A stretch of DNA of 61,989 bases, taken from the NCBI GenBank assembly GCA_964573695.1, contig CAZNKB010000007.1, forward strand, positions 1-61,989. The letters run 5' to 3'. Shown here piece by piece: positions 28,388 through 54,891 of this stretch (position 1 is the stretch's first letter; the number at the start of each line of letters is the position of its first letter). The position numbers and the translations under genes were made by a program. Below the pieces are notes generated by a model, which did no database searches, was not told the origin of the DNA, and worked only from the letters and a program-made list of their open reading frames with translations. The stretch comes from an uncultured Gammaproteobacteria bacterium (GTDB lineage: Bacteria; Patescibacteriota; Microgenomatia; UBA10105; UBA927).

Positions 28388-28508
28388 TTTTGCCACATAT
28401 CCCCCTCACCTGGTTGATCTTCTTGCGAGTCTAACTCTCACCAGCCCTTCTTGAGAAACGACGCGCGCCTAACGCCCGCCGTTAGTCATCCGATCCGGAT
28501 AAAAATCC

Positions 28509-28536
28509 AAAAACCCCGCTTCCGCGGGGCTTTTGG
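28509..28536. terminator. bidirectional rho-independent terminator between typA and the pilin gene
   Basis: Stem CCCCGC(28514-19)/GCGGGG(28524-29) with loop TTCC. It is flanked by an A-run upstream and a T-run downstream, so a U-tract follows the hairpin on either strand. Confidence 0.7.
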
Positions 28537-28557: not shown

Positions 28558-29016
28558 TTACCTGGTTACCGAGATAACAGCGCTGTTATCTGTCGTGGGA
28601 GCGCTCACCGTAATCCGGTTTGCCGCATCCCTGGCTATGTTATAGCCGGTATTCCAGCCTCCTACTGCCGCGCAGTCAGTGATATTGGCGGTGTTAAGTG
28701 CCGGGTCTGTTGGAAGCGCCGGCAAATAATTCGTCATCAACTGTCCGCACAAATTCGGGAAGTTCGTCGAATTAAACAGGGTAGCTGTACCTGCTACTAA
28801 TCCGCTTACTTCTCCGGGAAGTTGTCCCTGATTTTCCGCGACGTACTGATGTACGGCGTTTAATACCTGCAACACATCACTTCGGCGTTTCGTGTTATTT
28901 GCCTGACCGAATTGACGGGCCGGATTAATGGCAATTAACGTAATTGCCAGCAATATGGCCAAAATACCGATAACAACAAGTAGCTCGATGAGCGTAAACC
29001 CTTTTTTATGTTTCAT
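28558..29016 (-). CDS. type IV (major) pilin
   Basis: MKHKKG/FTLIELLVVIGILAIL is a class III signal with Gly-1, Phe+1 and Glu+5. 152 aa with its own promoter and an AAGGAGGGG SD. Confidence 0.9.
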   Translation of the reverse strand: MKHKKGFTLIELLVVIGILAILLAITLIAINPARQFGQANNTKRRSDVLQVLNAVHQYVAENQGQLPGEVSGLVAGTATLFNSTNFPNLCGQLMTNYLPALPTDPALNTANITDCAAVGGWNTGYNIARDAANRITVSAPTTDNSAVISVTR

Positions 29017-29104: not shown

Positions 29105-32095
29105 TTATGGGGAGAAATTCACATTCAAATCATAAAGCGTTGGCGTTTGATTTGTGTCTGTCGTATCCATATATATTTTGTACCTAAAGCATTGGTTCGG
29201 ATTAAGGTATCCTCCGTAAGTACCGACCGGAATCACGCCCGACATAACACTTCCTGACGGGACAAAATACGCGCTCGGGCTGGATCCCATAATCCCGTTT
29301 GGTCCGACATAGGTGTATGACGCTCCCACGCAGCTTCCGTTAACGGGCGCTGCAGCCCCGATCTGCACTTTGATCGACGTTTGCGCGGGCTGATTGACGA
29401 CTGCCTGAAAACGGTTAAACGCTGCGGAACCGGTTGCGTCAAAAAAATTTGACTCGAATGTTCCGGGGGTTAAATATATACCCGTATCCGGTCCGCCTTC
29501 GATTATTTTTAGCTGCTTTTCATTCGTATTTGCGACCATATATACGAAATTATCCCCATCCGCCTCCGACACGCTCGTCAAATCGTTAAAACCCTGATCA
29601 TAATTTACCCCGCCGCAATACAAAGGAGCAGCTTCCGAATCGATATTGAGTACCTGGTATTCCTGTGCGTTATTTGCGTCCGACAAACCGTCCTTTCCGA
29701 CCAATATCGCGCGCTGACCGTTTAACACGGTAAGCGACCGTCTCGGATACAGCTGTAAGTTTGCGGCGGTAGTCGCTTCATAGTACCCGCTTTGCGCACC
29801 CGTTAACGGAGTGCCGCTCAAAAATTGAGGACTGCTTTTGTTGGAGGTGTTGATAACATACCATTGTTTACTATCAGGCGCCCCGTCGTTATTTCCGTCA
29901 ATGCCTCCATTTGATGAAATATACGCCCGCGTTCCGTCGGACTTTGCAAATACGGAGTTTGCCGCCTCTTCCGTACCCGAAGCCGAATTGAAATCGAGCG
30001 ATCCGACCATTTTCCATCCGGCGTTTCCGCCGGATATCCTGCCGCAACTTGCGTTACTTATAGGGGGGTTTGAGGCCGCGTCCGGCACGCTTGTCGCATT
30101 TATAATCTCAAATTCCGGATTGGTGCCGGCGCCAACCGCTACATATATATAGTTATTACCGCTATCAATCACTCCATAAAGATCGTTAGATGCGTACAGT
30201 TCGATATTGCCCCCGTCGGAGCAGTCATTGTGCGCCGGACCAGTCGTATCACTCCATGTTGCCCCGGTTTCCCCTGCAGAATATTTCCGGTCAATGCCGG
30301 TTCCCGGACTGCAATCATATCCGTCGACCTGGATGCGACATCCTATCTGATCCAGACCCACGCTCGGCGACTTGGCATCGATAGTAGACAAATCAAATAC
30401 GTAAACATATCCGCCGGAGGACACGTATCCGCGATTTCCAAGAATGGTCAACGCCTTTGCTCCGTAACCAAATGGCTCCTGATCATTGGGCACGGATGAC
30501 ATTCCGTTATAATGCACCTTCGCTCCGACATAATCCAAAGAAAAATCCCGGGAAGTGCTGCTTGCGACGTTTATAACACGGACACGAAAATTCGCGTTGG
30601 AAAATTCAGTATCACCCCATACCCTTCCCCATGTGTCAGCGCTTCCGCCCAGCGTATATACGGCACCCGATGTCGTCAATGTCGCGGTTGATTGGGCGGC
30701 TGTCCATGTGGTACCACCATCCCAAGAAAGCTGCACGCACATCTTTGGTGCGTTGGCGGTGCTGTCTACGCGGGCCATAAGCTTGATTTCGATTCCGTTT
30801 ATTGTGGCTCCTGACGGAATAGAAAAACCATAGTTATAAAATTTATGCTTATCCTTATCCGCTCCCGTACAGTTTGTCCCGGTGTTGCTTCCGCTATTTG
30901 TATCTATGGCATAAGAACCGTTTAGTGTGTAGGCGTTGGCGGGGTTAGTTCCGAATCCGTTGTTGTCACCGGCATTTGTCGTGTCCGCCGAGTTAGCAGA
31001 CGGATTATGAAAGGCATCACCATAAATTTTTGTGTTAAACGACGTCCAATACTTGTAAATTTTATTTGTCGGATCCTGGAACGCGTCGGTCACCCCGTCA
31101 TGCACCTGCACGGCTATTACCTCTTTTTCAGGAAGATTTGTGGCCATGAGCGCATACACCTTTCCCGATGCTGATTTGTAATATTTGATGTCATTTGTCT
31201 TAAAGACATTATCGACATCAATACCAGTAGGCACCAATCCCGCATTGCTATACTGTGTTGGATCGAGGGTAAAAATCCCGCGCTGTGAGGCAACGGGCGG
31301 ATCTGTGTTGGCAGTAACGTTTATATACGTCATTTTTATGGAACTGTCAGTCGTAGGCGCAGTCGCGACAAAAACGTCGTTAGGGGAGGTTGCCAGCGCG
31401 CTTGCAGTTGCAACAACGGCCACGGGGGGTCCGTCAGGCAAATCTATTGCAGTGGTAGAAAATGTAGGACTGCACCATTTTCCCTTATTGTTGTTTGCAA
31501 GTGTAATTTCCCCCCCGGCGGTATTGGCCACCTGCGTACTACTTAACGTACCAGACGAAAAATCCGAAACGGTCGTCTGCATCAGGGAGGTATTTCCTAA
31601 AAACCGGGTCAGATACCACGACGCGTGAATCGATGACGCGTGCGGACTGGTCCAGGATATCGTAACGTCAATTTTTTTAATTGACGGATCCACTGACCCC
31701 GAAGGGAAAGACACGATAACACCATTCTCGTCACGATAGACGTCGCTTATGACTACTGACCGGGAAAGCCCCCCCAACGTGTCTGAACCGGCCAAAAGCG
31801 CCCACGTATTACCGCTCGTTATCGGGTGATACGTTCCGTTCGTTGATACGTTCTCCCATCCCCGTTCACGAACACTACGAATGGCCTCATACGTTTCCTG
31901 CATGAGAAGCGACGCCTGTACCCGTATATCCTGCATTGGCTTACTCTCGCGGGAAGCGATCATGACATAAGTTAAGCTCGGGAGGATAACGAGCATGAGG
32001 CCAATCGCAACCAGCAACTCAACGATAAATTGCCCCCGACGGAAAACGCGTGCAGGTTGCCTCCAAAACCTAAATATATGTAGGCGTACTCTCAT
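29105..32095 (-). CDS. giant pseudopilin-headed surface protein (996 aa)
   Basis: The start was set at ATG 32095, which overlaps the upstream stop (ATGA). The N-terminus RRG/QFIVELLVAIGLMLVIL is a prepilin-type cleavage/methylation segment. The rest is Gly/Asn/Thr/Ser-rich and predicted beta-rich. Confidence 0.7.
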   Translation of the reverse strand: MRVRLHIFRFWRQPARVFRRGQFIVELLVAIGLMLVILPSLTYVMIASRESKPMQDIRVQASLLMQETYEAIRSVRERGWENVSTNGTYHPITSGNTWALLAGSDTLGGLSRSVVISDVYRDENGVIVSFPSGSVDPSIKKIDVTISWTSPHASSIHASWYLTRFLGNTSLMQTTVSDFSSGTLSSTQVANTAGGEITLANNNKGKWCSPTFSTTAIDLPDGPPVAVVATASALATSPNDVFVATAPTTDSSIKMTYINVTANTDPPVASQRGIFTLDPTQYSNAGLVPTGIDVDNVFKTNDIKYYKSASGKVYALMATNLPEKEVIAVQVHDGVTDAFQDPTNKIYKYWTSFNTKIYGDAFHNPSANSADTTNAGDNNGFGTNPANAYTLNGSYAIDTNSGSNTGTNCTGADKDKHKFYNYGFSIPSGATINGIEIKLMARVDSTANAPKMCVQLSWDGGTTWTAAQSTATLTTSGAVYTLGGSADTWGRVWGDTEFSNANFRVRVINVASSTSRDFSLDYVGAKVHYNGMSSVPNDQEPFGYGAKALTILGNRGYVSSGGYVYVFDLSTIDAKSPSVGLDQIGCRIQVDGYDCSPGTGIDRKYSAGETGATWSDTTGPAHNDCSDGGNIELYASNDLYGVIDSGNNYIYVAVGAGTNPEFEIINATSVPDAASNPPISNASCGRISGGNAGWKMVGSLDFNSASGTEEAANSVFAKSDGTRAYISSNGGIDGNNDGAPDSKQWYVINTSNKSSPQFLSGTPLTGAQSGYYEATTAANLQLYPRRSLTVLNGQRAILVGKDGLSDANNAQEYQVLNIDSEAAPLYCGGVNYDQGFNDLTSVSEADGDNFVYMVANTNEKQLKIIEGGPDTGIYLTPGTFESNFFDATGSAAFNRFQAVVNQPAQTSIKVQIGAAAPVNGSCVGASYTYVGPNGIMGSSPSAYFVPSGSVMSGVIPVGTYGGYLNPNQCFRYKIYMDTTDTNQTPTLYDLNVNFSP

Positions 32096-32751
32096 TGTCG
32101 TACCATGTACCATATCATGCCGATTGCATACACCAACGCAAAAAATCCAAACACAATCCATCCGACCGGCGACGATCGCCGTTTTTCCTTGGTATCCTTT
32201 TCTTTGGTCGAAAGAATCGGATGATCATGAGTCATGAGCGGGAACGTCGAATCCTTTATTGTCTGTGTCGCATCAAATAATCGCTTGACTGTAATCCTGT
32301 CTATTTCTCCGGAGAGAATAATTTTTTGCGCCACCAGCTCGCCCCACGGAACGACCATGGCAATCGTTATGCCATGGGTGGCAAACGCCCGTACGGCAGC
32401 TTCATATACATCAGCGTTTGTGGCGACGACAAACACCTGATTGGCGTTGCGGATTACCGCGGTCTGAACATAGGAAAAGGGTGTGTTATCCGACAGTTGT
32501 TTTGTCACAGCCTCAATCTTGTCGGGAGTCGTCTGCGCAAAATAACACATCTCGTCAGCCAGGACGAGTACGGCGGGTATCGGCCCGCGGATTTTTTCTA
32601 CCATTTTGGTAACCGCCTGGGTGTACAATTCCTCATTGAGGATTTCCATATCTGCCATTGCTTCCGGAGGAATCGCGACAGACAACCCGCCGTCCCGGTC
32701 GGAAAAATAACAAAGCAGTGATGATCGGCGATGAATTATTAAGGCAGACAT
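32092..32751 (-). CDS. pilus-locus protein with a C-terminal TM anchor (possible PilM/PilN-like assembly component)
   Basis: 219 aa. It has a soluble N-domain and one TM helix near the C-terminus (VGWIVFGFFALVYAIGMIWYM). Position in the operon is the main evidence. Confidence 0.35.
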   Translation of the reverse strand: MSALIIHRRSSLLCYFSDRDGGLSVAIPPEAMADMEILNEELYTQAVTKMVEKIRGPIPAVLVLADEMCYFAQTTPDKIEAVTKQLSDNTPFSYVQTAVIRNANQVFVVATNADVYEAAVRAFATHGITIAMVVPWGELVAQKIILSGEIDRITVKRLFDATQTIKDSTFPLMTHDHPILSTKEKDTKEKRRSSPVGWIVFGFFALVYAIGMIWYMVRQ

Positions 32752-32760: not shown

Positions 32761-33150
32761 CTACGGTGTTTCCTTCCACGAATCGAGAACCAAGGTAAGA
32801 TTATTATAATGAACCGTTGCGACTATTTTCCGGGATACTACCCCCATAGACCCTACCGACTGAATCGTAATATTCGGATTTGATGTCACGGTGACAACAG
32901 CTGTCCGGTTTGTATCGACTGTCAATGTCTCTCCGGCATACAACGGGTCTCTCATTAATCGTAACATACTGTGTTCGATACCACTTTCCGCCGCTTGATA
33001 CGCCAACGCGCCCAATTCCTGCTGGCTTGATGCTTCAAATGCGTTCACAAGTGAAAATATTGCACCGGTCGTCACCAACATACCCACGACGACGACAAAC
33101 AACACTGTTATCACGGCCTGTCCGCTCTTTTGTGAATTGGTGTATTTCAT
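32761..33150 (-). CDS. PilX-like minor pilin
   Basis: 129 aa. The N-terminus SG/QAVITVLFVVVVGMLV has a hydrophobic pilin-like helix without Glu+5, as in PilX N-terminal domains. Confidence 0.55.
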   Translation of the reverse strand: MKYTNSQKSGQAVITVLFVVVVGMLVTTGAIFSLVNAFEASSQQELGALAYQAAESGIEHSMLRLMRDPLYAGETLTVDTNRTAVVTVTSNPNITIQSVGSMGVVSRKIVATVHYNNLTLVLDSWKETP

Positions 33151-33151: not shown

Positions 33152-33697
33152 CTATCGTAGACTGATCGCCGTTCTATACTGCCGTTCTTTCTGACCGGCA
33201 GACGTCACCCCTTTTGATCTGACGGTAAACCCTATGACAATGGTGTCTCGGGCAGTTGCAAGTTGTCCGGAATTGCCCACCTTGGTGACCAAAAAATCTG
33301 TCACCTCGGTATCACTGCTATTTAATTGTGTCGTTTGGGATCCGACAGTCAATATGAGATTTTGATTTTCAAGTTCATATCGGTATGGCACCTCAACTCC
33401 TCCGTCGGCAATGGAGGCGGAAAGTGTTGCCGTCGTACCACCCAAAACCGGCAACGTCACTAGCGTTGCCCGACGCAGATCGTATGTCGTTCGGGATAAT
33501 ATATATGCGCCGTTTTGTTCTACCGCCCCTTGCGCACCGGACGATAATTGTAATTGCACAATCGAAATAAATAATTCGCTCAGAATTACCAGAAGAATTC
33601 CGAGTAACCCGCTATAAATAGCCAGATCAATAAGCGTAAACCCTTTTTCCGACGATTTTCGCGTAATCATAGCCTTACTGGACAAACGGAACACCAT
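33152..33697 (-). CDS. minor pilin (prepilin-type N-terminal cleavage/methylation domain)
   Basis: EKG/FTLIDLAIYSGLLGILLVIL, with Asp rather than Glu at +5. 181 aa. Confidence 0.7.
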   Translation of the reverse strand: MVFRLSSKAMITRKSSEKGFTLIDLAIYSGLLGILLVILSELFISIVQLQLSSGAQGAVEQNGAYILSRTTYDLRRATLVTLPVLGGTTATLSASIADGGVEVPYRYELENQNLILTVGSQTTQLNSSDTEVTDFLVTKVGNSGQLATARDTIVIGFTVRSKGVTSAGQKERQYRTAISLR

Positions 33698-34169
33698 ATT
33701 TATTAAACCGAATAATGTATGTATCGTTGGTTTGGGTATTAGTTAAGGTAATACGATCCAGATTCGGATCATAATCCCGAACCTCCCCGCTCAAACGGGC
33801 GAACGTAATCATTCCGCCGGGAATCCCGGCGGGATCAAATGCGAGTACCGGATCAAGCCCGGTTACCTCGTTTGCGGTGTTATTCTCGTCAAAGACAACG
33901 CCGGGAAACAATATGTATCTGTTCTGTTCGAAACGGATCGAGTAGTCCAGGTACAAACCAGGCGCGGACGTCGATCCTTCCATGGCACGGTGTTGTTGTT
34001 TACGGATATCTGAAACAAGCGTATCGCGACTAACCGTTAACGATGCGCGTTGCTGTCCACGGAACACGTTGAGCGTCACGAGTCTCGTAAAAATCCCGAC
34101 AATTGCCATGACAACCAAAAGCTCTACGAGCGTCGCTCCTTGAGATAAGTGTTGTTTTTCTTGCCGCAT
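33675..34169 (-). CDS. minor pilin (GspH/FimT-like)
   Basis: SQG/ATLVELLVVMAIVGIF has Glu+5. 164 aa. It overlaps the next pilin gene by 23 nt. Confidence 0.7.
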   Translation of the reverse strand: MRQEKQHLSQGATLVELLVVMAIVGIFTRLVTLNVFRGQQRASLTVSRDTLVSDIRKQQHRAMEGSTSAPGLYLDYSIRFEQNRYILFPGVVFDENNTANEVTGLDPVLAFDPAGIPGGMITFARLSGEVRDYDPNLDRITLTNTQTNDTYIIRFNKYGVPFVQ

Positions 34170-34180: not shown

Positions 34181-36403
34181 TTAATCAATCGAACTATGGA
34201 TGATCCCTAATCCGTCAGAAACATATTTTCGTTGCAGTTGTTCACGCATTGCCGGTGAGTATATCGGAAGGGTAAAACTAAACGTCGATCCTTTGTCTAG
34301 GCCTGGCGAAACCGCCTCAACTGTCCCCCCATGCATCGAAATAATCGATTTACTTATGTACAACCCCAATCCCGTACTCTGATAGGGAGCGGAATCAGTA
34401 TTAGACCCGGAATGCACCGTACTGAATTTATGAAATAGCTTTGCCGCATCAGCCATGAGAAATCCAAGTCCGGTATCTTTGACCGACACGCAAACCATAT
34501 CGTTGTGACGGGAGGCGGTTATGGTAATGCTTCCGCCTTTCGGGGTAAACTTAATCGCGTTTCCGATAAAATTAATAAGCACTTCTTTAATTTTATCCAC
34601 ATCGGCAATGACATCGGGCAACTCTTGTGCAGAAATTTGCACATGAAGAGTCTGCCCCTGTTCGTCGATTTTCGGCTGAACTTCGGACAACACTTCGTTA
34701 AGCATGCTGGGCAACTCCGCCCTGGAAAACTGTACCGCGAGCCGACCGGATTCTATTCTTGAGATATTTAACATATCGTTGACAAGGCGGATCAGGCGAT
34801 CAGCAGACAAAAAAGCGCGATCCAGATAAAAACGCTGTTTTTCGCTGACCTCTCCTCCTTTACCGGAAAGAGCCATCCATAAATATGATCGTATCGAAGT
34901 GAGGGGTGTACGCAATTCATGTGACGCGAGTGACACAAACTCATCCTTGAGTTTGTCCAGTTGTTCTAATTTTTCGTTTGCCCTTCGCAAATCAACCGTC
35001 GCGCTTTTTACCTCATCTTCGAGTGTCACGTTAAATCTTCTGATTTCTTCGTATGAAAGAGAATTTTCTGTAGCAACCGCCGCCTCCGAAGCAATAATTT
35101 CGAGTGTGGAGATATCCTCATCGCTAAAAAGCTCTCCCGAACGCTTGTTCCCGATACACAGCAATCCGATAGCGCGCTGGCCTGTTTCGAGCGGAAGGAT
35201 GATTGCCGCATCAAGCGAGGCAAAAAAAGCGGCGATCTGTGGATCTTTTTCGTCGTCTCGAAGACGTACCTTCCCTAACGCCGAAATATAGGATCCCGTG
35301 TGTTCATGCACCTCGGGAGGCTTATCGTACCCGTCCGTATACATCGACACTATTTTCCCATGATTTACAATCATGATACAGGCGTGCTCCGTCTGAAATT
35401 CCCGGTCTATGCTTACGACCAGTTGGTGCGCAAGTTCTTCGAGTCGCAGCGTTCTGGCCATAATCTGAGCAACATGATAAAGGACTGCTGACGTATCATA
35501 TTTGTTCTTATAAAAAACCGCGTCCGTTGCTTTTTCTATAGTGCGCTTGACCAAGGGAAAGGTAATAAGCATCACGATCGCCGCTGCAGTAGACACTCCG
35601 ATAAATTTAAGATCAATAAACGGCGATACTAAAAGCGAAGAAGTCAGGGCAAACAGCAACGCATAAACGACTGCAAACAACGAAATCACAACAGCGTAGG
35701 ATACCGCCCGGGCTATGATAAACCTGATATCCAAAAATTTGTGTTTGATGATTGCGTAGGCAGTAGCTATGACAAAGGGCAGTGTATATAGCGGACTGGC
35801 GGACACGTATGATGAAATATTAAATACGACCACAAAGATAAAGTTAAACAGAAAAATAAGTACAAACATGCACACGATGCCGATGCCGATAATCTGAAGT
35901 TGCAACCTCAGTACCCCGCTTGAGCGACGCAGACGGTTCCATAACGTCATCACACCAGCAACAAGTGAGCCCACCGCCACAACGACAAACAACGGCATGG
36001 CTGGTCCAGGCGTCGGCGAAGGAGATCCGTTTACGAAAATGATCGAAGTAAACAAATACGGGCTGACGCTCGCGGCTGCCGCAACTATCCCGATAACAGC
36101 AAGAAATACTGGAACCCACCGGGGTAGCGTCAGTTGTTTATTGGGAATTGTCGAAAGCAGAAGAAAAAATAGTATTGCCTGTGGGACCGCCAGCGCCATA
36201 ACTATCCGCGTCCAATACAGCGCGGTCAATAAGTCGGCGCTGCTGATTGCGATGTAATTGGCAACCGACCATAGGGCAATATCTATGCTAAATAGAAAAA
36301 ACAGCGTATTGGTAACAGATTTCGGATTCCGAAGCGCGACAAGAAGCCCCAACGTGTTGTTAAGTAGGACGCCGAATATCAATATGGGCAGGTTCCAGTT
36401 CAT
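34181..36403 (-). CDS. multi-TM sensor histidine kinase with GAF domain
   Basis: 740 aa with about 8-9 N-terminal TM helices and a GAF-like region. H-box is SHELRTPLT. HATPase motifs are GNAIKFT, DTGLGF and GLGLYISK. Confidence 0.85.
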   Translation of the reverse strand: MNWNLPILIFGVLLNNTLGLLVALRNPKSVTNTLFFLFSIDIALWSVANYIAISSADLLTALYWTRIVMALAVPQAILFFLLLSTIPNKQLTLPRWVPVFLAVIGIVAAAASVSPYLFTSIIFVNGSPSPTPGPAMPLFVVVAVGSLVAGVMTLWNRLRRSSGVLRLQLQIIGIGIVCMFVLIFLFNFIFVVVFNISSYVSASPLYTLPFVIATAYAIIKHKFLDIRFIIARAVSYAVVISLFAVVYALLFALTSSLLVSPFIDLKFIGVSTAAAIVMLITFPLVKRTIEKATDAVFYKNKYDTSAVLYHVAQIMARTLRLEELAHQLVVSIDREFQTEHACIMIVNHGKIVSMYTDGYDKPPEVHEHTGSYISALGKVRLRDDEKDPQIAAFFASLDAAIILPLETGQRAIGLLCIGNKRSGELFSDEDISTLEIIASEAAVATENSLSYEEIRRFNVTLEDEVKSATVDLRRANEKLEQLDKLKDEFVSLASHELRTPLTSIRSYLWMALSGKGGEVSEKQRFYLDRAFLSADRLIRLVNDMLNISRIESGRLAVQFSRAELPSMLNEVLSEVQPKIDEQGQTLHVQISAQELPDVIADVDKIKEVLINFIGNAIKFTPKGGSITITASRHNDMVCVSVKDTGLGFLMADAAKLFHKFSTVHSGSNTDSAPYQSTGLGLYISKSIISMHGGTVEAVSPGLDKGSTFSFTLPIYSPAMREQLQRKYVSDGLGIIHSSID

Positions 36404-36411
36404 AATAGTCG

Positions 36412-37575
36412 CTATAATCCTATGGCCCGTTCAAATAGTCCTGTTTTGCTTCGCCGTTTTTTGACTGCGGCGGCGGTTGTATATCCAGGCACAAAAAAAG
36501 CATCAGGTGAAATCACAACTTTCCCCTGCACCAGCGGGTCTTTAAGAATAACCTTCCGTGCGACATAGGAAAGCACCGCCCCCGCCATGAACGCGGCGTT
36601 GCCTAATTGTGGCCAGGTATACAGCGACCTCCCTAATTCCAAAAGTGACTCCTGCATACGTCCGGCTATATTTTCCGGTTTCACCCATCGGCTGATAATT
36701 TTTGCCGCGACGTCTCGCCTCGTATTCGGCTCGATAGCCAACAGTTCCTTTTCGGGAACCTGCCCATGCATAAGGGGCAGCGTGGGATCGAGGTCAAACC
36801 GCTCGATATCAACCACCACCCCGTCACCGTTATCGGCCGCCATAATCACGGGGATCCTGTGTTTTCTCGAAAGCAAGCGCAATTGTATCTTAAGATACAG
36901 CGTGTCCATTTCATCAATCACGACGTTAAGTGGTTTGGGGGACACCAAAAACTTCTCAAGATTGCCTTTTGTTATCCCAGATTTATATATGACAATGTCG
37001 CTATAGGGATTCACGAGATATGTCTCGCGGGCAACTATGGCGTATTTCGGAATACCCACGGCATCAAATCCTGCTCTCACACGGTTGATATTGGATCCCG
37101 ATACGCTATCACCGTCGGCAACCCGTAGGAACTTCGCGCCTCCCGTGTGCACCAAAGAGGCAACAACCGAGTTTCCGACGCTCAGTCCCGCCACCCCCAC
37201 GCGGGAAAAATAATACCGATGCTGTTCCTCCTGGGTTATAAGATTTCTGTTTCTTCCTGTGCGAAGCTCTGTATGCAGGTCCTCGGGAAGAAAATGAGTA
37301 AGCGTCGAAATCCAGGGGAACCATGCCCATGTCCCGTATTCCGTTATATTTGGAAAATCCGCCGTCAAGCCTGCCACAAACTCAGCCAATTCCCGAGGCT
37401 TAACCCCCGTATGAATTGTCCGGGGATGACGCATGGCGTATAACTCCCGGAGCTGCTCTGTTAGCGTATCGTGTATGACAGGATTTTTGTTTTTTTGGAT
37501 CCACCCCAGCATATACCGGTCCTTTTTTCGGTTGGGATACATCATCACTGGAGCATACGGTAGTATTACGGTCAT
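36412..37575 (-). CDS. ThiF/MoeB/E1-like adenylyltransferase-family protein
   Basis: Rossmann/nucleotide loop VGVAGLSVGNSVV, then RVADGDSVSGSNINR. The N-terminal extension (WAWFPWISTLTHFL) is like Rv1355c/MoeY-type proteins. The true start may be the internal ATG at 37512. Confidence 0.65.
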   Translation of the reverse strand: MTVILPYAPVMMYPNRKKDRYMLGWIQKNKNPVIHDTLTEQLRELYAMRHPRTIHTGVKPRELAEFVAGLTADFPNITEYGTWAWFPWISTLTHFLPEDLHTELRTGRNRNLITQEEQHRYYFSRVGVAGLSVGNSVVASLVHTGGAKFLRVADGDSVSGSNINRVRAGFDAVGIPKYAIVARETYLVNPYSDIVIYKSGITKGNLEKFLVSPKPLNVVIDEMDTLYLKIQLRLLSRKHRIPVIMAADNGDGVVVDIERFDLDPTLPLMHGQVPEKELLAIEPNTRRDVAAKIISRWVKPENIAGRMQESLLELGRSLYTWPQLGNAAFMAGAVLSYVARKVILKDPLVQGKVVISPDAFFVPGYTTAAAVKKRRSKTGLFERAIGL

Positions 37576-37615
37576 AGCAGGAAAATACGTACATTTATTG
37601 TAGCAACTCCCGGCG

Positions 37616-39178
37616 TTATTTTCTTACCCAACGATGTTTGCCCGGAGCGGAAAAAAATGCCGAATCCCTAAACGGGCGGAGGGCAATGTGTGGTGTCACC
37701 CGCTCCGGGGGCAGTTGCTTGGCGAGATATGCATACTCCGAATTATTCGTCATGAGCTCTTCTATCACTCGCTCCCTGATGCGTTCTTCCAATAATCGGC
37801 TTGCCCGAATATTTTTTTTGAGTTCCACATGAACTGTGAGGTACTGGTCCAAATTATCGTTTACATCCACTTGGAGCGTGCATTTACCCGTAACAAACGA
37901 CGCGACAGCGCCGTGTTCCAGCGCGCGGCGTATTTCCTGGGGAAATATATTTGCCCCGGATAGCTTCACCGTAAAATCGCTACGCTCGAACACGTACACA
38001 AATGGAATATTCCATACGGTCCGGGACAATCCCGCCAGCCTCACTTCTCTTTGGAGATCAACGCCGTACCGCGCGCATGTTTCCTGTATTTGGGCGTATG
38101 TCAGTGTGCCACCCGTATCCAATAAATTATACCGCACAAGAGGCAACCCGCTTCGTGCCGAGCAGACTAACAAACCTTTTATGGCCTCAAAATAAAATAG
38201 CTCCGGAATATATTGAGCGAGGGTCGGCTGACGCACCGGGTGTCCGAACAGTGCCTCGTTTAGCGATTGGTTATCCCGGGCTATCCGGCGTATTAAAACG
38301 GAAACGGGCGTTTCATGCGCCATGGTGCCCAAATCGACCGTGCCATAATGATTAAGTGTATCCCGATATATATCGGATAACCCTGCAGCCCTGATAATAT
38401 AATCCCGAAAAGCCTCACTAAATCCCTCCGCAGAAAAAATAAATTTAACACGGTAAGTTTTCCACGGAATTTTTTTTCTGACTCCCTCATCCACCAAATC
38501 CTTGATCATCGGCGGATATCCGCCGATAATCACCTGATCAAATAACGGGCCCAATGTTACAAGCGCCTTGAGTATTTCTTCCTGGTTAGCGCCGGGAGTA
38601 ATAATGCTTACGGGGTACTTACCTCGCTCAGCGACCTGACGGACAGCGGAATAACTGAACACCCCGCCTATCCAAATACCCATTCCCCAACCGACAATAT
38701 AGAGTGTACGTTTATGCTGTATGTCAAAGTTTGTCCGAAGATACATCTCTGCCACCGCGGCGTAGTGCAAATCCTGTTCCTTGGTCCTCGGAAAGTAAAA
38801 CGGCTCCCCGCTTGATCCGCTCGTCGCGGAAATCACCCCCTGCCGACCCGATACATCTCCCTTCCATGAAAGATCGGGTAGTGAGTCGGCACGCAGATAC
38901 GAATTTTTATCAACAATCGGCACACGTAAAAAATCACGCTGTCCCCTGATTGATGCGGGCTGAATCCGGTGTTTTGATAACATCCTCTTGTATGCCGGTA
39001 CGTTTACCGCCATTTCCCGAAACAACCGCAACGCCATTTGCTTACCGCGACTGATCCAGTACGTCTCGGGAAACTGTCTGAGTAATCGCGACCAGGTCAC
39101 CGGATCATGCAACAGTCGATCTGTACGAAACGTGTGGCGAACTTTTTTCATCAAATATATTGTATCGGAAACCCGCAT
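37616..39178 (-). CDS. adenylate-forming ligase, phenylacetate-CoA ligase / coenzyme F390 synthetase (CapK)-like
   Basis: The AMP-binding P-loop equivalent is SATSGSSGEPFYFPRT. The overall COG1541-like layout is about 510 aa. An alternative start is at 39151. Confidence 0.7.
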   Translation of the reverse strand: MRVSDTIYLMKKVRHTFRTDRLLHDPVTWSRLLRQFPETYWISRGKQMALRLFREMAVNVPAYKRMLSKHRIQPASIRGQRDFLRVPIVDKNSYLRADSLPDLSWKGDVSGRQGVISATSGSSGEPFYFPRTKEQDLHYAAVAEMYLRTNFDIQHKRTLYIVGWGMGIWIGGVFSYSAVRQVAERGKYPVSIITPGANQEEILKALVTLGPLFDQVIIGGYPPMIKDLVDEGVRKKIPWKTYRVKFIFSAEGFSEAFRDYIIRAAGLSDIYRDTLNHYGTVDLGTMAHETPVSVLIRRIARDNQSLNEALFGHPVRQPTLAQYIPELFYFEAIKGLLVCSARSGLPLVRYNLLDTGGTLTYAQIQETCARYGVDLQREVRLAGLSRTVWNIPFVYVFERSDFTVKLSGANIFPQEIRRALEHGAVASFVTGKCTLQVDVNDNLDQYLTVHVELKKNIRASRLLEERIRERVIEELMTNNSEYAYLAKQLPPERVTPHIALRPFRDSAFFSAPGKHRWVRK

Positions 39179-39213
39179 TGAGTTTCTTGACTTTGAGTTA
39201 TATGATTGGTTCT

Positions 39214-39612
39214 ATGGCGAAACGCGTCCTTATTATAGATGACGATACCTATATTCGGGATTTATACGAAGAGGTGCTCAAGAGCGAAGGATTTGAAGTA
39301 TTGGTCGCAAAAGACGGCCAGGAAGGATTAGCCCAATTGCTTATAGGCGGATATGATGTAGTATTACTCGATGTTATGATGCCCAAACTTGACGGCATCG
39401 GCGTGCTGACGAAACTCAAGGAGTCTGTGCCCCAGCGACCAAACGGGCCGATATTGTTACTTACCAATTTGGATCATGATCCGATCCTGACGCAGGCCAC
39501 CACACTTGGCGTCTATAAACATTTGCTCAAAGCGGATATGCTGCCGCCGGCGCTTGTATCTGCCGTCAAAGAAGCAATGCAAATTCCTACTGTACCCCAA
39601 CCTGCCCGATAA
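39214..39612 (+). CDS. stand-alone CheY-like receiver domain protein
   Basis: The start is at MAKRVLIIDDD. It has the phospho-acceptor context VVLLDVMMPKLDG and a conserved Lys context, and no output domain. Its 3' end overlaps the convergent pilC by 26 nt. Confidence 0.85.
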   Translation: MAKRVLIIDDDTYIRDLYEEVLKSEGFEVLVAKDGQEGLAQLLIGGYDVVLLDVMMPKLDGIGVLTKLKESVPQRPNGPILLLTNLDHDPILTQATTLGVYKHLLKADMLPPALVSAVKEAMQIPTVPQPAR

Positions 39613-40636
39613 GATTATAAATCGGGGCGATGATTGCCATCATCATACTTCCGACAATAAGCCCGACCACAACCAATATGACTGGTTCCAACAGTGTCAC
39701 CATATATTGTAGTGTCGTGGTTACCTGATAATCAAAGTATTCCGTGAGATCCTCCATGGATTTATCCAGCGTACCGCTTCGCTCTCCTACCTCAATAATT
39801 TTTGTCATAAGCGACGGGATCGCCTTCTGTCCATGGAAGCCGTCCGTGATTCGCTTTCCCGACCCGACAAAATCTCTCGCCCTCCGGATAGCTGCCCTGA
39901 CGTCGTTTTTTATCGCCACGTTTTGCGTGAATTCGAGTGCCGTATAAAGTGGAATCGCTGACGTCAGCAACAAATACATGCTTCGGCTAAAACGCGTAAG
40001 GTCTATTTGCCGCGCGATAGAAGAAATATACGGCAGACTCAGCATTGTGTTGACGAAAAAACGCTTTTGTTTGATATAGAGTAACGTCATCAGAAAAATA
40101 CATGTTCCCGTGACAACGATAGTCGGTATGGTGTAATGAAGTATAAGGTTGGACAAAAATATAAGCACCCGAGTAGGCACGGGTAATTCCACCCGTAACT
40201 TAAGGAACACACTTGCTATCTTTGGAATGACAAAGGTAAGCAGAAGCAACAGCACGCCAAGAAATACAACAACGATAATAACCGGGTAAGTTAAGGCGGA
40301 CTTAATTTTATCGGTGAATTCTATATCTTTTTTTACGGTGACTTTTATGTCCTTCAGTACGACATCTATCGTTCCTGACTCCTCCGCTGCTTTTATAATC
40401 GCGACCGTCACCGTGTCAAAAATTTTCGGATATTTTTCCAACGCGTTGTGAAGCTGTTTTCCCTGATTAATATCCGCGGCTATTCCCGTCAGGATAAGTT
40501 TCATCGCTCCGGTCGCATCCTGCAGCAATGAACTGACTGCTTCGGCTGTCGTCAGCCCGGCATTTACCATCGTGGACATATTGCTGAAAAAACTCAGCTT
40601 TTCACTGCTGGGAATCGTAAGTTTTTCGGTTTTCAT
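39587..40636 (-). CDS. pilC: type II secretion system F-family platform protein (PilC)
   Basis: 349 aa with two T2SSF repeats and 3 TM helices. It is 4-nt overlap-coupled to pilB. Confidence 0.85.
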   Translation of the reverse strand: MKTEKLTIPSSEKLSFFSNMSTMVNAGLTTAEAVSSLLQDATGAMKLILTGIAADINQGKQLHNALEKYPKIFDTVTVAIIKAAEESGTIDVVLKDIKVTVKKDIEFTDKIKSALTYPVIIVVVFLGVLLLLLTFVIPKIASVFLKLRVELPVPTRVLIFLSNLILHYTIPTIVVTGTCIFLMTLLYIKQKRFFVNTMLSLPYISSIARQIDLTRFSRSMYLLLTSAIPLYTALEFTQNVAIKNDVRAAIRRARDFVGSGKRITDGFHGQKAIPSLMTKIIEVGERSGTLDKSMEDLTEYFDYQVTTTLQYMVTLLEPVILVVVGLIVGSMMMAIIAPIYNLIGQVGVQ

Positions 40637-42309
40637 AAAGATTCTACCCGGGTAACCCGCAGTATTTCCTCAATCGTCGTTACCCCCTGGGAAACCTTCA
40701 TCAGTCCGTCATCGAGCATTGTTACCATGCCCTCTTTTATTGCCTGCTGCATGATAAGATCCGAATCCTGACGCTGGGTTATAAGCCTGCGGATTTCTTT
40801 TGAAACCATGAGAACTTCAAAAATTCCGACCCGTCCTGCATATCCGGTAAATCGGCAGTTTTTGCACCCCTGACCTTTGTATACCCGGATTTCCTTATTT
40901 TCACCGACGGGAATATAGTGCTTGCTGATAACCGTCGACGGTAAGCTTTTTTGCAATTCCGTTTCTGTTATCGTGGTCGAAACGCGACAGTAATCGCAAA
41001 TTTTCCTCACCAGGCGTTGTGCCACGATAAGACTCACGCTGGAGGCTACAAGAAACGGTTCAACGTGCATGTCGATAAGCCGTGGCAACGACGTCGCTGC
41101 GTCATTGGTATGCAGGGTGGAAACGACCAAATGCCCGGTAAGTGCGGCATTTATGGCAATGCCCGCGGTTTCCGCATCTCGTATTTCTCCGACAAATATG
41201 ATGTTCGGGTCCTGACGCAGGATACTGCGCAGCCCATTGGCGAACGTAAGGTTCGTTTTGGAATTTACCTGAATTTGATTTACGCCTTTTATGCGATATT
41301 CGACCGGATCTTCAATCGTGGTGATATTTTTATCCCGGACGTTTAAAATCTTGAGCATCGCGTATATGCTCGTGGTCTTGCCGGAACCGGTTGGTCCGGT
41401 AGACAAAATCATACCGTACGTTCGCTTGAGCGCTGCGTTCACTTTGTCCACTGCGTCAGCACTCATTCCTAAATCGGTAAAGCTAAAAAGCTTGAAATTC
41501 GCGACCAGCAACCGCATCACGATTTTCTCTCCCTCTACCATGGGGATAATGGATATCCGAATATCGACCGACTGGTCATCGTGTTGAATCCGAATTTTTC
41601 CGTCCTGGGGAGCCGAGTGTTCATCCGTGCGAAGATTCGCCAAGACTTTTATCCGACTCACCACTTGACTATGTATCGTTTTGGATAGATGAAGGACATC
41701 ATGAAGCACGCCGTCGATACGATACCGTACAAGCGAGTCGGCCTCCTGCGGTTCAATGTGAATATCGGACGCGTTTTCGTCAACTGCCGTGTGCATGAGC
41801 AAATCAACGATCAGCACAAGCGGCGCCTCATCTTCGCGATGATATTTTTTCATGAGGTCGGCAAACAACGTTTGCACGTCGCGTCTGTGGAGCTTTAATG
41901 CGGTACGGATATCCTGCTCTGTGGCGAAATGTACTACGATCCGCTGGGCTACTTTTTTTTCAAGGGTAGCAATAGCTGCCGCATCCGAAGGATCGGCAAC
42001 GGCGACTTTTACCCCTTCTTGATCCCGCCCAAACGGAATCATGAGGTGCGTTTTGGCAAATTTATCGGGAATAATCCGATACACCGCCTCAGGAATCGTA
42101 ATACTCGAGAGATTTACAAACGGTAAACCATAATACTGCGCTATGAGCTTCCCCAGATGATCTTCGGTAATAATTTTTTTCTGCCGGACAGCTTCAGCTA
42201 GAGCAATGTTAGCCGTCTTGGCAAACTCTTCGATAATACCGAGTTCGGCCTCAGAAACAACGGAGGCGTTGATAAGAATTTTGTGCAGTACGTCGTCGGG
42301 CAGCGTCAT
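40633..42309 (-). CDS. pilB: GspE/PilB-family type IV pilus assembly ATPase
   Basis: Walker A is GPTGSGKTT. The Asp box, Walker B and His box are present (VGEIRD, TGHLV.STLHTN). A tetracysteine motif is present (CDYC...CKNC). Confidence 0.9.
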   Translation of the reverse strand: MTLPDDVLHKILINASVVSEAELGIIEEFAKTANIALAEAVRQKKIITEDHLGKLIAQYYGLPFVNLSSITIPEAVYRIIPDKFAKTHLMIPFGRDQEGVKVAVADPSDAAAIATLEKKVAQRIVVHFATEQDIRTALKLHRRDVQTLFADLMKKYHREDEAPLVLIVDLLMHTAVDENASDIHIEPQEADSLVRYRIDGVLHDVLHLSKTIHSQVVSRIKVLANLRTDEHSAPQDGKIRIQHDDQSVDIRISIIPMVEGEKIVMRLLVANFKLFSFTDLGMSADAVDKVNAALKRTYGMILSTGPTGSGKTTSIYAMLKILNVRDKNITTIEDPVEYRIKGVNQIQVNSKTNLTFANGLRSILRQDPNIIFVGEIRDAETAGIAINAALTGHLVVSTLHTNDAATSLPRLIDMHVEPFLVASSVSLIVAQRLVRKICDYCRVSTTITETELQKSLPSTVISKHYIPVGENKEIRVYKGQGCKNCRFTGYAGRVGIFEVLMVSKEIRRLITQRQDSDLIMQQAIKEGMVTMLDDGLMKVSQGVTTIEEILRVTRVESL

Positions 42310-42599: not shown

Positions 42600-43127
42600 T
42601 TGAAGTACATCGACCTGACCGTACCGCTTTTTGACCACATGCCGGTCTACCCCGGTGATCCGGATTTGATCCTCACGCTCATTCAGACAATAGAGAAAGA
42701 CGGATGGAACATGCGAAGGATCGAAATGAACCTCCATGACGGGACGCATATAAACGCGCCCATTCACATGGCGATAAACGGCAAATCACTAGACGACCTT
42801 CCGTTAGAACGATTGAACGGTCCGTGCGAATTATACAAAGATAACATGACGTTCGATCCGGCCGTCGGCGTGATATTTGTATCGCAAAATATTGACATGG
42901 ATATTGCGCGCCAGATTGTCCAGTCTCCGCCCAAATTCATCGGTCTTTCCAACAAATTGGAATTTGACATCGCAATTGAAAAATTCCTGCTTGAACACGA
43001 CGTGATTTCTTATGAAAATCTTGCCAATACGGAAACACTCCCGGCGCGTTTTATGTTCTATGGGTTTCCGTTGGCTATTAGAAATGGAGACGGATCTCCC
43101 GTGCGAGCGGTTGCAGTTATCGAATAA
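42600..43127 (+). CDS. cyclase-family protein (kynurenine formamidase-like)
   Basis: The motif HDGTHINAPIH (HxGTHxDxPxH-like) and the N-terminal IDLT.P....MPVYPGDP pattern are present. It has a TTG start and is short for the family (175 aa). Confidence 0.65.
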   Translation: MKYIDLTVPLFDHMPVYPGDPDLILTLIQTIEKDGWNMRRIEMNLHDGTHINAPIHMAINGKSLDDLPLERLNGPCELYKDNMTFDPAVGVIFVSQNIDMDIARQIVQSPPKFIGLSNKLEFDIAIEKFLLEHDVISYENLANTETLPARFMFYGFPLAIRNGDGSPVRAVAVIE

Positions 43128-50453: not shown

Positions 50454-50588
50454 AGCGGAGGAGACAGGACTTCCCGCAGAGACGGGATTGTCGCTCGCCA
50501 CCGCTCGCGCCTTACTTCTCGTCCTATCTTTCGTTGAAAAAGTGCTCGCCAAACGGCGATCACCTTTTTCAGCGGAGGAGACAGGACT
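50454..50588. repeat. 18-nt direct repeat of the tRNA-Ser(GGA) 3' end
   Basis: AGCGGAGGAGACAGGACT occurs at 50454-50471 and again at 50571-50588. The second copy is the 3' acceptor/T-arm of the intact tRNA. Confidence 0.9.
50456..50524 (-). pseudogene. degenerate tRNA-Ser-like element (no anticodon arm, shortened T-loop)
   Basis: The minus-strand sequence GGACGAG...GCGAGCGGT...CAATCCCGTCTCTGCGGGAAGTCCTGTCTCCTCCG shows the following. The acceptor pairs at 6/7 positions. There is a D-loop-like AGCGGT. The variable-arm and 3' end are homologous to the neighbouring tRNA-Ser(GGA). The T-loop is 3 nt short. Confidence 0.55.
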
Positions 50589-50655
50589 CGAACCTGCGAG
50601 GGATTGCTCCCGTACGCTTTCCAAGCGTATGCCGTAGCCGCTGGGCCACTCCTCC
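50573..50655 (-). tRNA. tRNA-Ser (anticodon GGA)
   Basis: Hand-folded. Acceptor GGAGGAG/CTCCTCC, anticodon stem TACGC/GCGTA with loop TTGGAAA, long variable arm, T-arm CAGG-TTCGAGT-CCTG, discriminator G. Confidence 0.85.
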
Positions 50656-50708
50656 AAAGGCTTTGATTATATCATCTTTTGCGTCTTCCCCGGTGCTATA
50701 ATACCTAT

Positions 50709-51629
50709 ATGACGGTGCGTCACAAAGCGCTTTTTGCAATACTTATTTCTGCGATCCTCTGGGCAAGTGCCGGCTCAGTTTCCAAACTGCTGTTTATGGA
50801 AACTACTCCTTTTGTCGCGGCAAGCCATAGGTTTTTACTTGCCTCACTTATAATTCTCCCCTTTTTTCTTCGGGCCAAAAAGCCAAAGGGATATATTCTT
50901 TCACTCCTACCTCTTGGCGTATTTAACGCCGGTAATATTCTGTTTTACTACACCGGTCTCTCGCTAACGACAGCAAACACGGGGAGTATCTTGGGGACTG
51001 CTATTCCCATTACCGTCGCGCTTTTTTCCCCGTTTTTCATAAAAGAACCTATCGCGAAAAACAAACTACTGGGTATTCTTATCGGGCTTGCGGGTGCTCT
51101 ATGCATTGTTTTACTTCCGATGATCGAAAACGGCCACCTGAACTCAGGGAGTCTGTTGGGAAACCTCCTCATGGTCGGCAGCCTTCTCTGTTGGACTATG
51201 TATATTATTTTTTCTCGACGTATCCTCTCTCAAGTCGATTATCCCCCCGAACTTTCAACGTCTATCAATATTTTTACCGTCACCATTGCTGCTACATTTG
51301 CGGCATTTGTCTCCGGGCAAACCCTTATATCACCCGCGCTTCTTGTCCCTGCCTATTTGGGGGTACTGCTTTACGTTGCAATAGGAATTACGATCGTCAC
51401 GTTTTTTCTTTTCCAATGGGGAGTCCGACACGTATCCGCTTCTACCGCATCACTTAAAGAATATATCCAACTTGTCGTAGGGGTCGGCATAAATGCGTTA
51501 GTCCTCGGTGAGCGCCTCACGTTCACCTACCTTTTGGGATCTATACTCATTATAGTGGGAGTACTGTTTGCGACGGGAAACCGCTTGACCAAAAAAATGG
51601 CTTCGGCGTTATTTACCCAAGGGGAATAG
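50709..51629 (+). CDS. DMT-superfamily (EamA/RhaT-like) transporter
   Basis: The start is at ATG 50709. 306 aa, 10 TM, two EamA repeats. Confidence 0.8.
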   Translation: MTVRHKALFAILISAILWASAGSVSKLLFMETTPFVAASHRFLLASLIILPFFLRAKKPKGYILSLLPLGVFNAGNILFYYTGLSLTTANTGSILGTAIPITVALFSPFFIKEPIAKNKLLGILIGLAGALCIVLLPMIENGHLNSGSLLGNLLMVGSLLCWTMYIIFSRRILSQVDYPPELSTSINIFTVTIAATFAAFVSGQTLISPALLVPAYLGVLLYVAIGITIVTFFLFQWGVRHVSASTASLKEYIQLVVGVGINALVLGERLTFTYLLGSILIIVGVLFATGNRLTKKMASALFTQGE

Positions 51630-51631
51630 CG

Positions 51632-52228: not shown

Positions 52229-52241
52229 AGATATGTATAAG

Positions 52242-52313
52242 TACTCCCGGGCAGAGTCGAACTGCCATCACAGCCTTCGGAGGGCCGCATTCTATCCATT
52301 GAACTACGAGAGC
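52242..52313 (-). tRNA. tRNA-Arg (anticodon CCG)
   Basis: Hand-folded, 72 nt. Acceptor GCTCTCG/CGGGAGT (two G-U pairs), D-arm GTTC-AATGGATA-GAAT, anticodon loop CTCCGAA, T-arm GGCAG-TTCGACT-CTGCC. Confidence 0.8.
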
Positions 52314-54871: not shown

Positions 54872-54891
54872 AGTATATTCTGCTGTCAGAG

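Follow-up and report, generated by a model that had tools for sequence, protein, structure and literature searches.

In a 61,989-nucleotide contig of an uncultured patescibacterium (CAZNKB010000007.1; this whole stretch of DNA is hereafter the window), a PaaK-type ligase, a ThiF-like protein, a histidine kinase with a seven-transmembrane (7TM) sensor and a CheY-like receiver are encoded between pilB-pilC and the pilin genes of a type IV pilus locus, and we read these four, with modest confidence, as probably constituting an oxazolone-type small-molecule synthase and receptor cassette of Patescibacteria, the Candidate Phyla Radiation (CPR). Our confidence is high that the ligase-ThiF pair belongs to this cassette and family, moderate that the ligase chemistry is as proposed below, and low to moderate for signalling and control of the pilus. 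The initial annotation had offered three roles for the pair: modification of a pilin or of a large tip protein, synthesis of a small acyl-adenylate-derived signal, or a sensory module for the pilus. The second is the best supported, with chemistry of the oxazolone type by homology to TrzS, TyzB and OxzB; the third is possible for this lineage only, in which the pilins of the window begin 11 nucleotides past the kinase without a terminator-like site and the gene arrangement is kept down to 56% ThiF identity, and the two merge into the synthase-plus-receptor reading. The two enzymes do not form a protein-modification system of the E1 type. The cassette appears ancient and widespread in Patescibacteria and lies inside the pilus locus in one clade; its novel features are a ligase replacing the acyltransferase, a dedicated 7TM two-component pair and a form with a GAF domain and no oxidase.

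The make-up of the cassette was analysed in two sets of loci, which were searched with the window proteins and in which all open reading frames (ORFs) were clustered all-against-all for recurrent neighbours. The first set comprised 80 loci from species-representative genomes with 10-kb flanks, 46 of them with at least 5 kb on both sides, and the second consisted of independent metagenome loci, 19 with full flanks. A relative of the ThiF-like protein is encoded by at least 319 species-representative genomes, and among the candidates scored the family gave 707 matches at E <=1e-5, all named ones being CPR. The ligase adjoins the ThiF-like gene in 78 of the 80 loci and stands directly beside it in every full-flank locus of both sets (46/46 and 19/19). 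A kinase with a homologous 7TM sensor accompanies the pair in 42/46 and 16/19 loci, a nitroreductase-superfamily flavin oxidase of about 350 amino acids (aa) lies just 3' of the ThiF-like gene in 34/46 and 12/19, and a single-domain receiver is present in 18/46 and 9/19. Just 5' of the ligase, 18 of the 46 loci encode a Glu/Leu/Phe/Val-type dehydrogenase (best match the tryptophan dehydrogenase ScyB, 1.7e-89) and five encode, in the same place, an aromatic amino-acid lyase (best match a flexirubin tyrosine ammonia-lyase, 627 bits); the two never share a locus, and one or the other occurs in about half of the loci. For the CPR oxidase, matches were obtained both to the Acg family and to the Rv1355c model, in the C-terminal half of the latter (1e-57 to 1e-65). 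The full order thus reads [dehydrogenase or lyase]-ligase-ThiF cyclase-[Acg/TyzC-type flavin oxidase]-HisKA_7TM kinase-[CheY-like receiver], brackets marking the optional members. No N-acyltransferase family of the TrzA, TyzA or OxzA type recurs among the 80 clustered CPR loci. Searches at E up to 10 found no oxidase, dehydrogenase or lyase in the whole 62-kb window, and no oxidase lies within 10 kb of the cassette in loci L001-L003, L006, L081-L085 and L087. A family of about 305 aa with a glycine-rich NIGSGG motif, without Pfam match and possibly a methyltransferase, was observed in 13 cassette loci, in L010, L016, L024, L040, L042, L053, L059, L062, L063, L069 and L071 between the oxidase and the kinase.

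The best family of the ThiF-like protein is the Rv1355c family, not ThiF or MoeB. The NCBIfam model NF005901 matches residues 7-360 on profile positions 11-338 of 722 (1.8e-80, 271 bits), that is, along its N-terminal half including the Rv1355c-type N-terminal extension, which had been correctly recognised in the initial annotation; the cut-off of 476 bits applies to the whole protein and is unreachable here because the window protein is only half-length. Over residues 7-356 it shares 35% identity with the ThiF half of a full-length fusion, P0294, which scores 775 bits against the same cut-off. A search of 1.84 billion representative proteins with the CPR profile yielded 1,212 proteins at <=1e-30, and about half of the best 150 representatives were fusions of 690-790 aa; those checked score 725-775 bits against the Rv1355c cut-off of 476, and their alignments cover roughly positions 5-375 of the CPR profile. 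Because fusions that pass as Rv1355c align along the CPR profile in this way, and because of the 35% identity, the stand-alone CPR protein is, by sequence comparison, the cyclase half of the oxazolone synthetase family.

The chemistry of this family has been described. TrzS (Rv1355c) catalyses ATP-dependent cyclisation of N-acyl-tryptophan, which is made by the acyltransferase TrzA, followed by O2-dependent desaturation to an N-acyl tryptazolone; with the oxidase disabled or O2 limited the cyclised saturated oxazolone accumulates, and the D217A exchange in the ThiF motif abolishes the whole reaction (PMC12856293). Equivalent chemistry on N-acyl-tyrosine is carried out by TyzB and TyzC as separate proteins and by the fusion OxzB (PMC10404671, PMC12596934). 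In an alignment of 21 homologues of the window protein (37-68% identity) the adenylation residues R105-x-x-R108-N109, G130/S132/G134 and D154/D156 are invariant, as are N162/N164/R165/R167, K177 and D224 of a DEMD motif; from its motif position, D224 would correspond to the aspartate essential in TrzS. The AlphaFold model (predicted local distance difference test, pLDDT, 91.9) gave Foldseek matches to AclA (9egb, the best, as a fold match only), ThiF, MoeB, PaaA, MccB and TcdA, and TcdA is the nearest solved structure by sequence profile (9e-15).

The earlier label "E1-like" holds for the fold and the adenylation motifs and fails for the catalytic cysteine and the CxxC zinc site. The window protein contains zero cysteines; no column of the 21-sequence alignment is conserved for Cys, which occurs in at most four sequences per column, and a CxxC zinc site was found in 0 of 81 family members. 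Thus, an E1-type thioester, a persulfide relay and a ThiF/MoeB zinc site are excluded. The search for small ORFs ending in GG that had been recommended was run and gave none in the intergenic regions of the 27-45 kb interval; the sole such ORF of 20-130 aa there lies out of frame inside the ThiF-like gene. Clustering of ORFs of at least 50 aa from the 80 loci likewise revealed no conserved small partner family, only antisense shadows of large genes.

Fusions bring further members of the cassette together. Inside CPR, ThiF-oxidase fusions are encoded at L055 (P0243, 743 aa, L055:9980-12211; 534 bits against 476) and at L170. The fusion P0256 (924 aa, L164:153-2927) joins a ThiF-like domain to an aromatic lyase/aminomutase and is followed by a ligase (35% identity to that of the window, 1e-88), an oxidase and a HisKA_7TM kinase. 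An 889-aa ligase-ThiF fusion (L033:3024-5693) is a single case in which an assembly error is possible, and P0351 (775 aa) is a GNAT-ThiF fusion.

The ligase was found to be a complete adenylate-forming enzyme as far as its motifs go. The adenylate-forming (ANL) motifs are complete, in line with the initial assignment to CapK/PaaK-like ligases, for which a check of the A8 and A10 motifs had been suggested, and in 25-sequence alignments TSGSSGEP (119-126), Y278-G279, D354, R399/D401 and the A10 lysine K514 are invariant; the motif quoted in the initial annotation is present but reads TSGSSGEPFYFPRT, one letter off the quotation. The AlphaFold model (pLDDT 86.6) has as its best Foldseek matches PaaK1 (2y27, 5e-23), BT_0428, 2-hydroxyisobutyryl-CoA ligase and ClxA (TM-scores 0.54-0.68), with the amino-acid-conjugating GH3 enzyme JAR1 as a more distant match, and a profile search of the Protein Data Bank retrieved PaaK at 8.3e-17. 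Orthology to phenylacetate-CoA ligase is not supported, as the NCBIfam PaaK score is 39.6 bits (2.2e-10) against an equivalog cut-off of 646.3; Pfam gave a weak C-terminal match alone, the N-terminal domain being matched by no family. By sequence and model it is thus a PaaK-type enzyme of a separate family outside Pfam. Since the ligase occupies the acyltransferase's position and no acyltransferase family recurs in CPR, we infer by analogy that it supplies the N-acyl amino acid, either by direct amide formation, which is known for some relatives of its fold, or through a thioester.

One locus bears on possible ligase substrates. L083:7020-17644 carries two tandem ligase-ThiF pairs together with a Beta_methylindole_red_C reductase, a methyltransferase, a 7TM-GAF kinase and a receiver; the reductase and the methyltransferase adjoin the ligase. 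Ind3 is an enzyme which we take to be PaaK-like. It uses ATP to join indolmycenic acid to dehydroarginine, and an oxazolinone results (PMC8246080). The L083 gene set recalls the indolepyruvate branch of indolmycin biosynthesis (PMC8246080), a lead that would point to indole-derived acids as ligase substrates.

The kinase, described in the initial annotation as an 8-9-transmembrane GAF histidine kinase, indeed shows about eight to nine hydrophobic segments in residues 1-285 in a hydropathy scan. Pfam assigns these residues to a HisKA_7TM sensor, followed by GAF (about 321-447), HisKA (2.7e-17) and HATPase_c (2.6e-23), and the H-box HELRTP contains the phospho-accepting histidine, H495. The receiver carries the acidic pocket (DD, D) and the lysine. 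With the His, the HATPase_c domain and the receiver Asp in place, the two have by sequence the parts of a two-component system and may be cognate partners. The receiver is a single domain without DNA-binding output, because of which direct regulation of the operon by it is not obvious. The 7TM region alone (kinase residues 1-300) finds kinases in 60 of the 80 loci at E-values of 1e-30 to 1e-144; the sensor is specific to the ligase-ThiF cassette, and the kinase accompanies the enzymes as constantly as the oxidase does. Furthermore, in both sets a GAF domain is present in the kinase only where the oxidase is absent from the locus. Among the 46 loci, 34 have the oxidase only, seven GAF only, none both and five neither, and among the 19 metagenome loci the corresponding numbers are 12, three, none and four; the window falls in the GAF class. 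The GAF domain might read a saturated product in the cell, or the oxidase might have been lost in an oxygen-poor niche.

A link to 7TM kinases recurs outside CPR. Six fusions were sampled among representatives that carried no earlier CPR identification; one, L170, turned out to lie in a CPR cassette, unlike the five others. In four of these five (L165, L168, L169 and L171) the ThiF-oxidase fusion is followed by a 227-254-aa protein and then by a 7TMR-DISM histidine kinase, and in the three with long enough contigs (L165, L168 and L169) a hybrid receiver-kinase and a receiver come next. Since 7TMR-DISM is unrelated to the 7TM sensor family of the CPR cassette, TrzS-type enzymes are linked to two unrelated 7TM families, and a ligand-receptor pair therefore fits better than a generic regulator. 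The fifth locus, L166, encodes a lyase, a ThiF-oxidase fusion, a 256-aa protein and a classical AMP-binding ligase, an order that by analogy would match the expected route from tyrosine through coumarate, activated acid and N-acyl amino acid to oxazolone. The 227-256-aa proteins beside the non-CPR fusions take the place that the N-acyltransferase has in the known systems; they gave a GNAT hint at E 0.06 only, so that an acyltransferase label is not established for them. A Por_Secre_tail protein encoded at L165 suggests that this locus comes from Bacteroidota.

Taken together, we propose the following route. An aromatic amino acid would be deaminated to an aryl acid by an enzyme encoded in about half of the loci and not in the window. 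The ligase, to judge from its gene position, would adenylate the aryl acid and couple it with an amino acid, so that an N-acyl amino acid is formed. The ThiF-like enzyme would then, by homology to TrzS, TyzB and OxzB, adenylate the carboxylate of this product, and the amide oxygen would close a 5(4H)-oxazolone, in which the oxidase, where present, would desaturate the ring substituent. The clade of the window has no nearby oxidase, and its product would therefore be a saturated oxazolone or a derivative, following the TrzS precedent. The 7TM kinase, as its gene linkage suggests, would sense the product or a precursor and signal through the single-domain receiver, and with the cassette lying between pilB-pilC and the pilins, this signal may be tied to the production or the activity of the pilus, which is the weakest step of the proposal. 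No link of oxazolone synthetases to histidine kinases or to CPR was found in the literature; signalling is raised only as a possibility by the authors of the TrzS study, from neighbouring cyclic-di-GMP genes (PMC12856293). The wider conjecture that Patescibacteria, and independently other bacteria, use aromatic-derived oxazolone signals read by 7TM kinases, wired here through the receiver and co-transcription to the pilus on which these epibionts rely for moving and for contacting a host, seems to us improbable enough to be offered as speculation.

The cassette shares parts with several known systems. To TrzA-TrzS of Mycobacterium tuberculosis (Rv1356c-Rv1355c), whose locus neighbours cyclic-di-GMP genes (PMC12856293), it is related by the ThiF half with its N-terminal extension, by the oxidase half as the next gene in most CPR loci and by some full fusions; it differs in that the halves are usually separate genes, the oxidase is missing in the window's clade, a PaaK-type ligase replaces TrzA in position, and the unit includes a 7TM kinase and a receiver. 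With TyzACB (Rv2336-Rv2338c) and OxzAB (Pseudoalteromonas rubra) it would share a three-step sequence, from an N-acyl aromatic amino acid through ATP-dependent cyclisation by a ThiF-like enzyme to flavin-dependent desaturation (PMC10404671, PMC12596934), and TyzB and TyzC illustrate that cyclase and oxidase can be separate proteins. The known systems use an acyl-CoA-dependent acyltransferase whereas CPR have an adenylate-forming ligase, and the CPR acyl group may be an aryl acid instead of a fatty acid, given the linked lyase or dehydrogenase. The ligase has the fold and all the adenylate-forming catalytic motifs of PaaK relatives (2y27, 2y4o, 4r1l; ClxA 9s45; GH3/JAR1 4epl), but only 17-19% identity to the solved structures and about 80-90 additional residues. 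TcdA, the tRNA t6A dehydratase, resembles the oxazolone cyclases in acting on an N-acylated amino acid moiety, whose carboxylate it adenylates before forming a five-membered ring (PMC12596934), but its substrate is a tRNA nucleoside and it is without the N-terminal extension, the C-terminal WPQLG region and a partner ligase, oxidase or kinase.

In signalling, CqsA/CqsS, LuxM/LuxN and AgrBD/AgrC are systems in which enzymes for a small molecule are encoded beside a polytopic membrane histidine kinase and a response regulator; the likeness is in layout only, as the CPR synthases and sensor are non-homologous to them. Two-component control of type IV pili is exerted by PilS-PilR and by the CheY-like PilG and PilH. 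The window resembles these in having a kinase and a single-domain receiver within a pilus locus, and differs in having no PilR-type DNA-binding regulator and a kinase sensor that belongs, in most lineages, to the cassette.

The positions of the genes are listed in the table. The gaps of 40, 8 and 11 nucleotides along the ligase, the ThiF-like gene, the kinase and the pilin row are exact, and genes and strands are as originally described, as is the divergent orientation of receiver and ligase. The receiver is also convergent with pilC, with an overlap of 26 nucleotides at the pilC 3' end that had been missed; because this gene on the opposite strand intervenes, pilB-pilC form a unit apart from the one running from the ligase to the pilins. 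Six pilin-like genes, whose translations have pilin-type N-termini, lie directly 3' of the kinase, and a minus-strand consensus scan placed the strongest terminator-like site of the region just 3' of the last of them, with none comparable from the ligase to the pilins. A promoter scan was uninformative (21 promoter-like sites against 22.9 expected by chance). Within the pilin row, the 1018-aa ORF overlaps the upstream gene by 70 nucleotides, and its true start is therefore probably internal; its counterparts in relatives measure 665-994 aa and stand at another position within the row.

Positions of the cassette and pilus genes in the window, and of the ThiF-oxidase fusion loci outside CPR.
Feature	Position	Strand	Remarks
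pilB	40633-42309	minus	T2SSE 3.6e-124, with MshEN
pilC	39587-40636	minus	T2SSF 9.6e-47
CheY-like receiver, 132 aa	39214-39612 (likely ATG start; ORF opens with TTG at 39160)	plus	Response_reg 5.4e-21
PaaK-type ligase, 520 aa	37616-39178	minus	Start may instead be the ATG at 39151; heads the cassette in the window
ThiF-like gene, 387 aa	36412-37575	minus	Pfam ThiF 6.8e-12; NCBIfam Rv1355c family 1.8e-80
Sensor histidine kinase, 740 aa	34181-36403	minus	HisKA_7TM, GAF, HisKA and HATPase_c (Pfam)
Pilin-like gene	33675-34169	minus	N_methyl motif; first gene 3' of the kinase
Pilin-like gene	33152-33697	minus	Pilin-type N-terminus
Pilin-like gene	32761-33150	minus	Weak PilX_N match
Pilin-like gene	32092-32751	minus	Member of the pilin row
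1018-aa ORF in the pilin row	29105-32161	minus	No Pfam match; hydrophobic pilin-like N-terminal segment
Last pilin gene	28558-29016	minus	N_methyl motif
Terminator-like hairpin	28507-28536	minus	13-bp stem with 8 G-C pairs, then a T run; consensus scan only
Non-CPR fusion locus	L165:6001-12678		
Non-CPR fusion locus	L168:605-7377		
Non-CPR fusion locus	L169:1772-8465		
Non-CPR fusion locus	L171:230-5097		

The linkage to the pilus is a property of one clade. The order dnaG-rpoD-pilB-pilC-receiver (other strand)-ligase-ThiF-kinase-pilins was found in L001-L003, L081, L084, L085 and L087 at ThiF identities of 56-68%, and in L001-L003, L081, L085 and L087 the position and orientation of the receiver and the pilin row after the kinase are alike. 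At L082 and L083 (50% ThiF identity) the cassette is present with no pilus genes nearby. A pilB-type ATPase lies within 10 kb in seven of the 46 full-flank loci and pilC in five; either gene is found in 7/46 and 3/19 loci of the two sets, all belonging to the window's clade except L046, L047 and L072. A recurrent linkage of the ThiF-like family to T2SS-E/F and pilin genes, which the initial annotation had suggested surveying, is thus confined to this clade and a few scattered loci. The neighbourhoods of homologues largely assign the pair to an unrelated pathway and show the link to the pilus as a local trait, an outcome that the initial annotation had named as refuting its proposal. The pilus locus of L085 also contains the cassette's amino-acid dehydrogenase, placed after the receiver and before the ligase; the whole small-molecule cassette, not a pilin-tailoring pair, was placed there.

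That this neighbourhood is a frozen accident, cassette and pilus genes being functionally unrelated, is the alternative that survives best, although we consider it rather doubtful. The restriction to one clade and two or three further loci fits it, as does the well-preserved synteny of the clade in general, where the dnaG-rpoD and bipA flanks also keep their order. It accounts less well for the pilins, which follow the kinase at gaps of 2-11 nucleotides or overlap it, without a terminator-like site, across ThiF identities of 56-96%, or for the receiver, whose immediate neighbour is pilB or pilC in the window, L001-L003, L046, L072 and L081; in L046, from an unrelated lineage, oxidase, kinase, receiver and pilB form a tight same-strand run, and in L072, also unrelated, receiver, pilB and pilC lie 4 kb past the kinase. 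In the window's clade, kinase and pilin genes are probably co-transcribed, which is plausible because of the 11-nucleotide gap and the lack of a terminator-like site between them.

A further alternative is a metabolic operon that brings its own regulation. Its enzymes would turn an aromatic amino acid or a host aryl acid into a needed or excreted metabolite, for example an antimicrobial or an oxazolone resembling a membrane lipid, and kinase and receiver would only sense substrate or stress and switch the operon on; signalling between cells or with a host would play no part. For the known oxazolones a role in signalling is not established; stress responses have been associated with them, and antimicrobial activity with N-acyl tyrosines (PMC12856293). 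Deaminating enzymes lie 5' of the ligase in about half of the loci, and some loci have methyltransferases, as tailoring pathways do. A single-domain receiver without DNA-binding output is not an obvious direct regulator of such an operon, and a polytopic 7TM sensor is conserved alongside the enzymes while an unrelated 7TM kinase family is tied to the TrzS-type enzyme outside CPR, so that we regard this explanation as unlikely.

Very improbable, in our view, is a ribosomal peptide of the MccB/PaaA type, made from a very short precursor that would be adenylated at its C-terminus by the ThiF-like enzyme and tailored by ligase and oxidase. The structural matches include MccB and PaaA, with alignments longer than those of ThiF or MoeB, and precursors of 7-30 residues would escape the ORF screens with their minimum of 20-50 aa. 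These alignments have a root-mean-square deviation above 9 Å, the N-terminal extension is common to the TrzS-family fusions and TrzS acts on N-acyl-tryptophan (PMC12856293), and no small ORF family is conserved in the 80 loci, the intergenic gaps of the window measuring 8-40 nucleotides. Least probable of all is a post-translational role, in which ligase and E1-like enzyme would activate carboxylates to modify a pilin or the large tip protein, and which the shared strand, the gaps of 8-40 nucleotides and the missing terminator-like site, kept at ThiF identities of 56% or more, would fit, but against which stand the conservation of pair and kinase across CPR classes mostly without pilus genes within 10 kb (39 of the 46 full-flank loci have no pilB within that distance), the lack of Cys, zinc site and ubiquitin-like partner, the specific kinship of the ThiF-like protein to cyclases acting on small N-acyl amino acids (PMC12856293) and the dehydrogenase in the L085 pilus locus.

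The reading as a synthase with its receptor has several points standing against it. The linkage of the kinase fits the sensing of a substrate for the regulation of a metabolic operon as well, the receiver has no output domain, and the ligase may only make a CoA thioester for an unrecognised acyltransferase. The sample of non-CPR fusions was small and picked from the matches nearest to the CPR profile, and may represent one related group. Beyond the clade, few loci have pilus genes next to the cassette (L046, L072 and perhaps L047), and these roughly three independent occurrences support no claim of enrichment. Moreover, the window and its clade lack oxidase, lyase and dehydrogenase (bar L085) in the DNA examined, so the oxazolone enzyme pair is incomplete here; the oxidase could be encoded in another part of the genome, or a different chemistry could operate. 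The window sequence was found in DNA runs only, from activated sludge and groundwater, and no product, substrate or transcript has been observed.

Two further features of the window were observed. Between rpoD and pilB, on the opposite strand, a 175-aa protein (42600-43127, plus strand) matches the "Putative cyclase" family PF04199 at 6.3e-12 and has no counterpart in the 80 related loci; PF04199 includes kynurenine formamidases, and a connection of this protein with tryptophan is possible. Seven tRNA genes with interspersed ORFs are clustered within 7 kb (50572-57540, minus strand), five for tRNA-Ser (GGA, CGA, ACT, TGA and GCT) and two for tRNA-Arg (CCG and GCG), among which the tRNA-Ser gene with ACT, an unusual anticodon, could be a false prediction.

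As far as our searches reached, the literature contains no description of a pilus system with a ligase-ThiF pair, in agreement with the initial annotation. The physiological role of bacterial oxazolones is a major open question (PMC12856293), and the linkage of their synthetase family to 7TM kinases in two unrelated architectures makes the signalling idea directly testable. Members of this family are at present annotated as ThiF, MoeB or tRNA dehydratase, and our analysis removes the misleading equation of "E1-like" with protein modification. Patescibacteria have very small genomes and a lifestyle that relies on other cells as well as type IV pili (PMC11665869), and a cassette encoded in so many of their species-representative genomes is likely to matter to them. 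If the wider conjecture given above is true, it would provide the first physiological role for oxazolones and the first small-molecule signalling system for CPR, and a pilus-coupled chemical signal would bear on how Patescibacteria find or hold their hosts.

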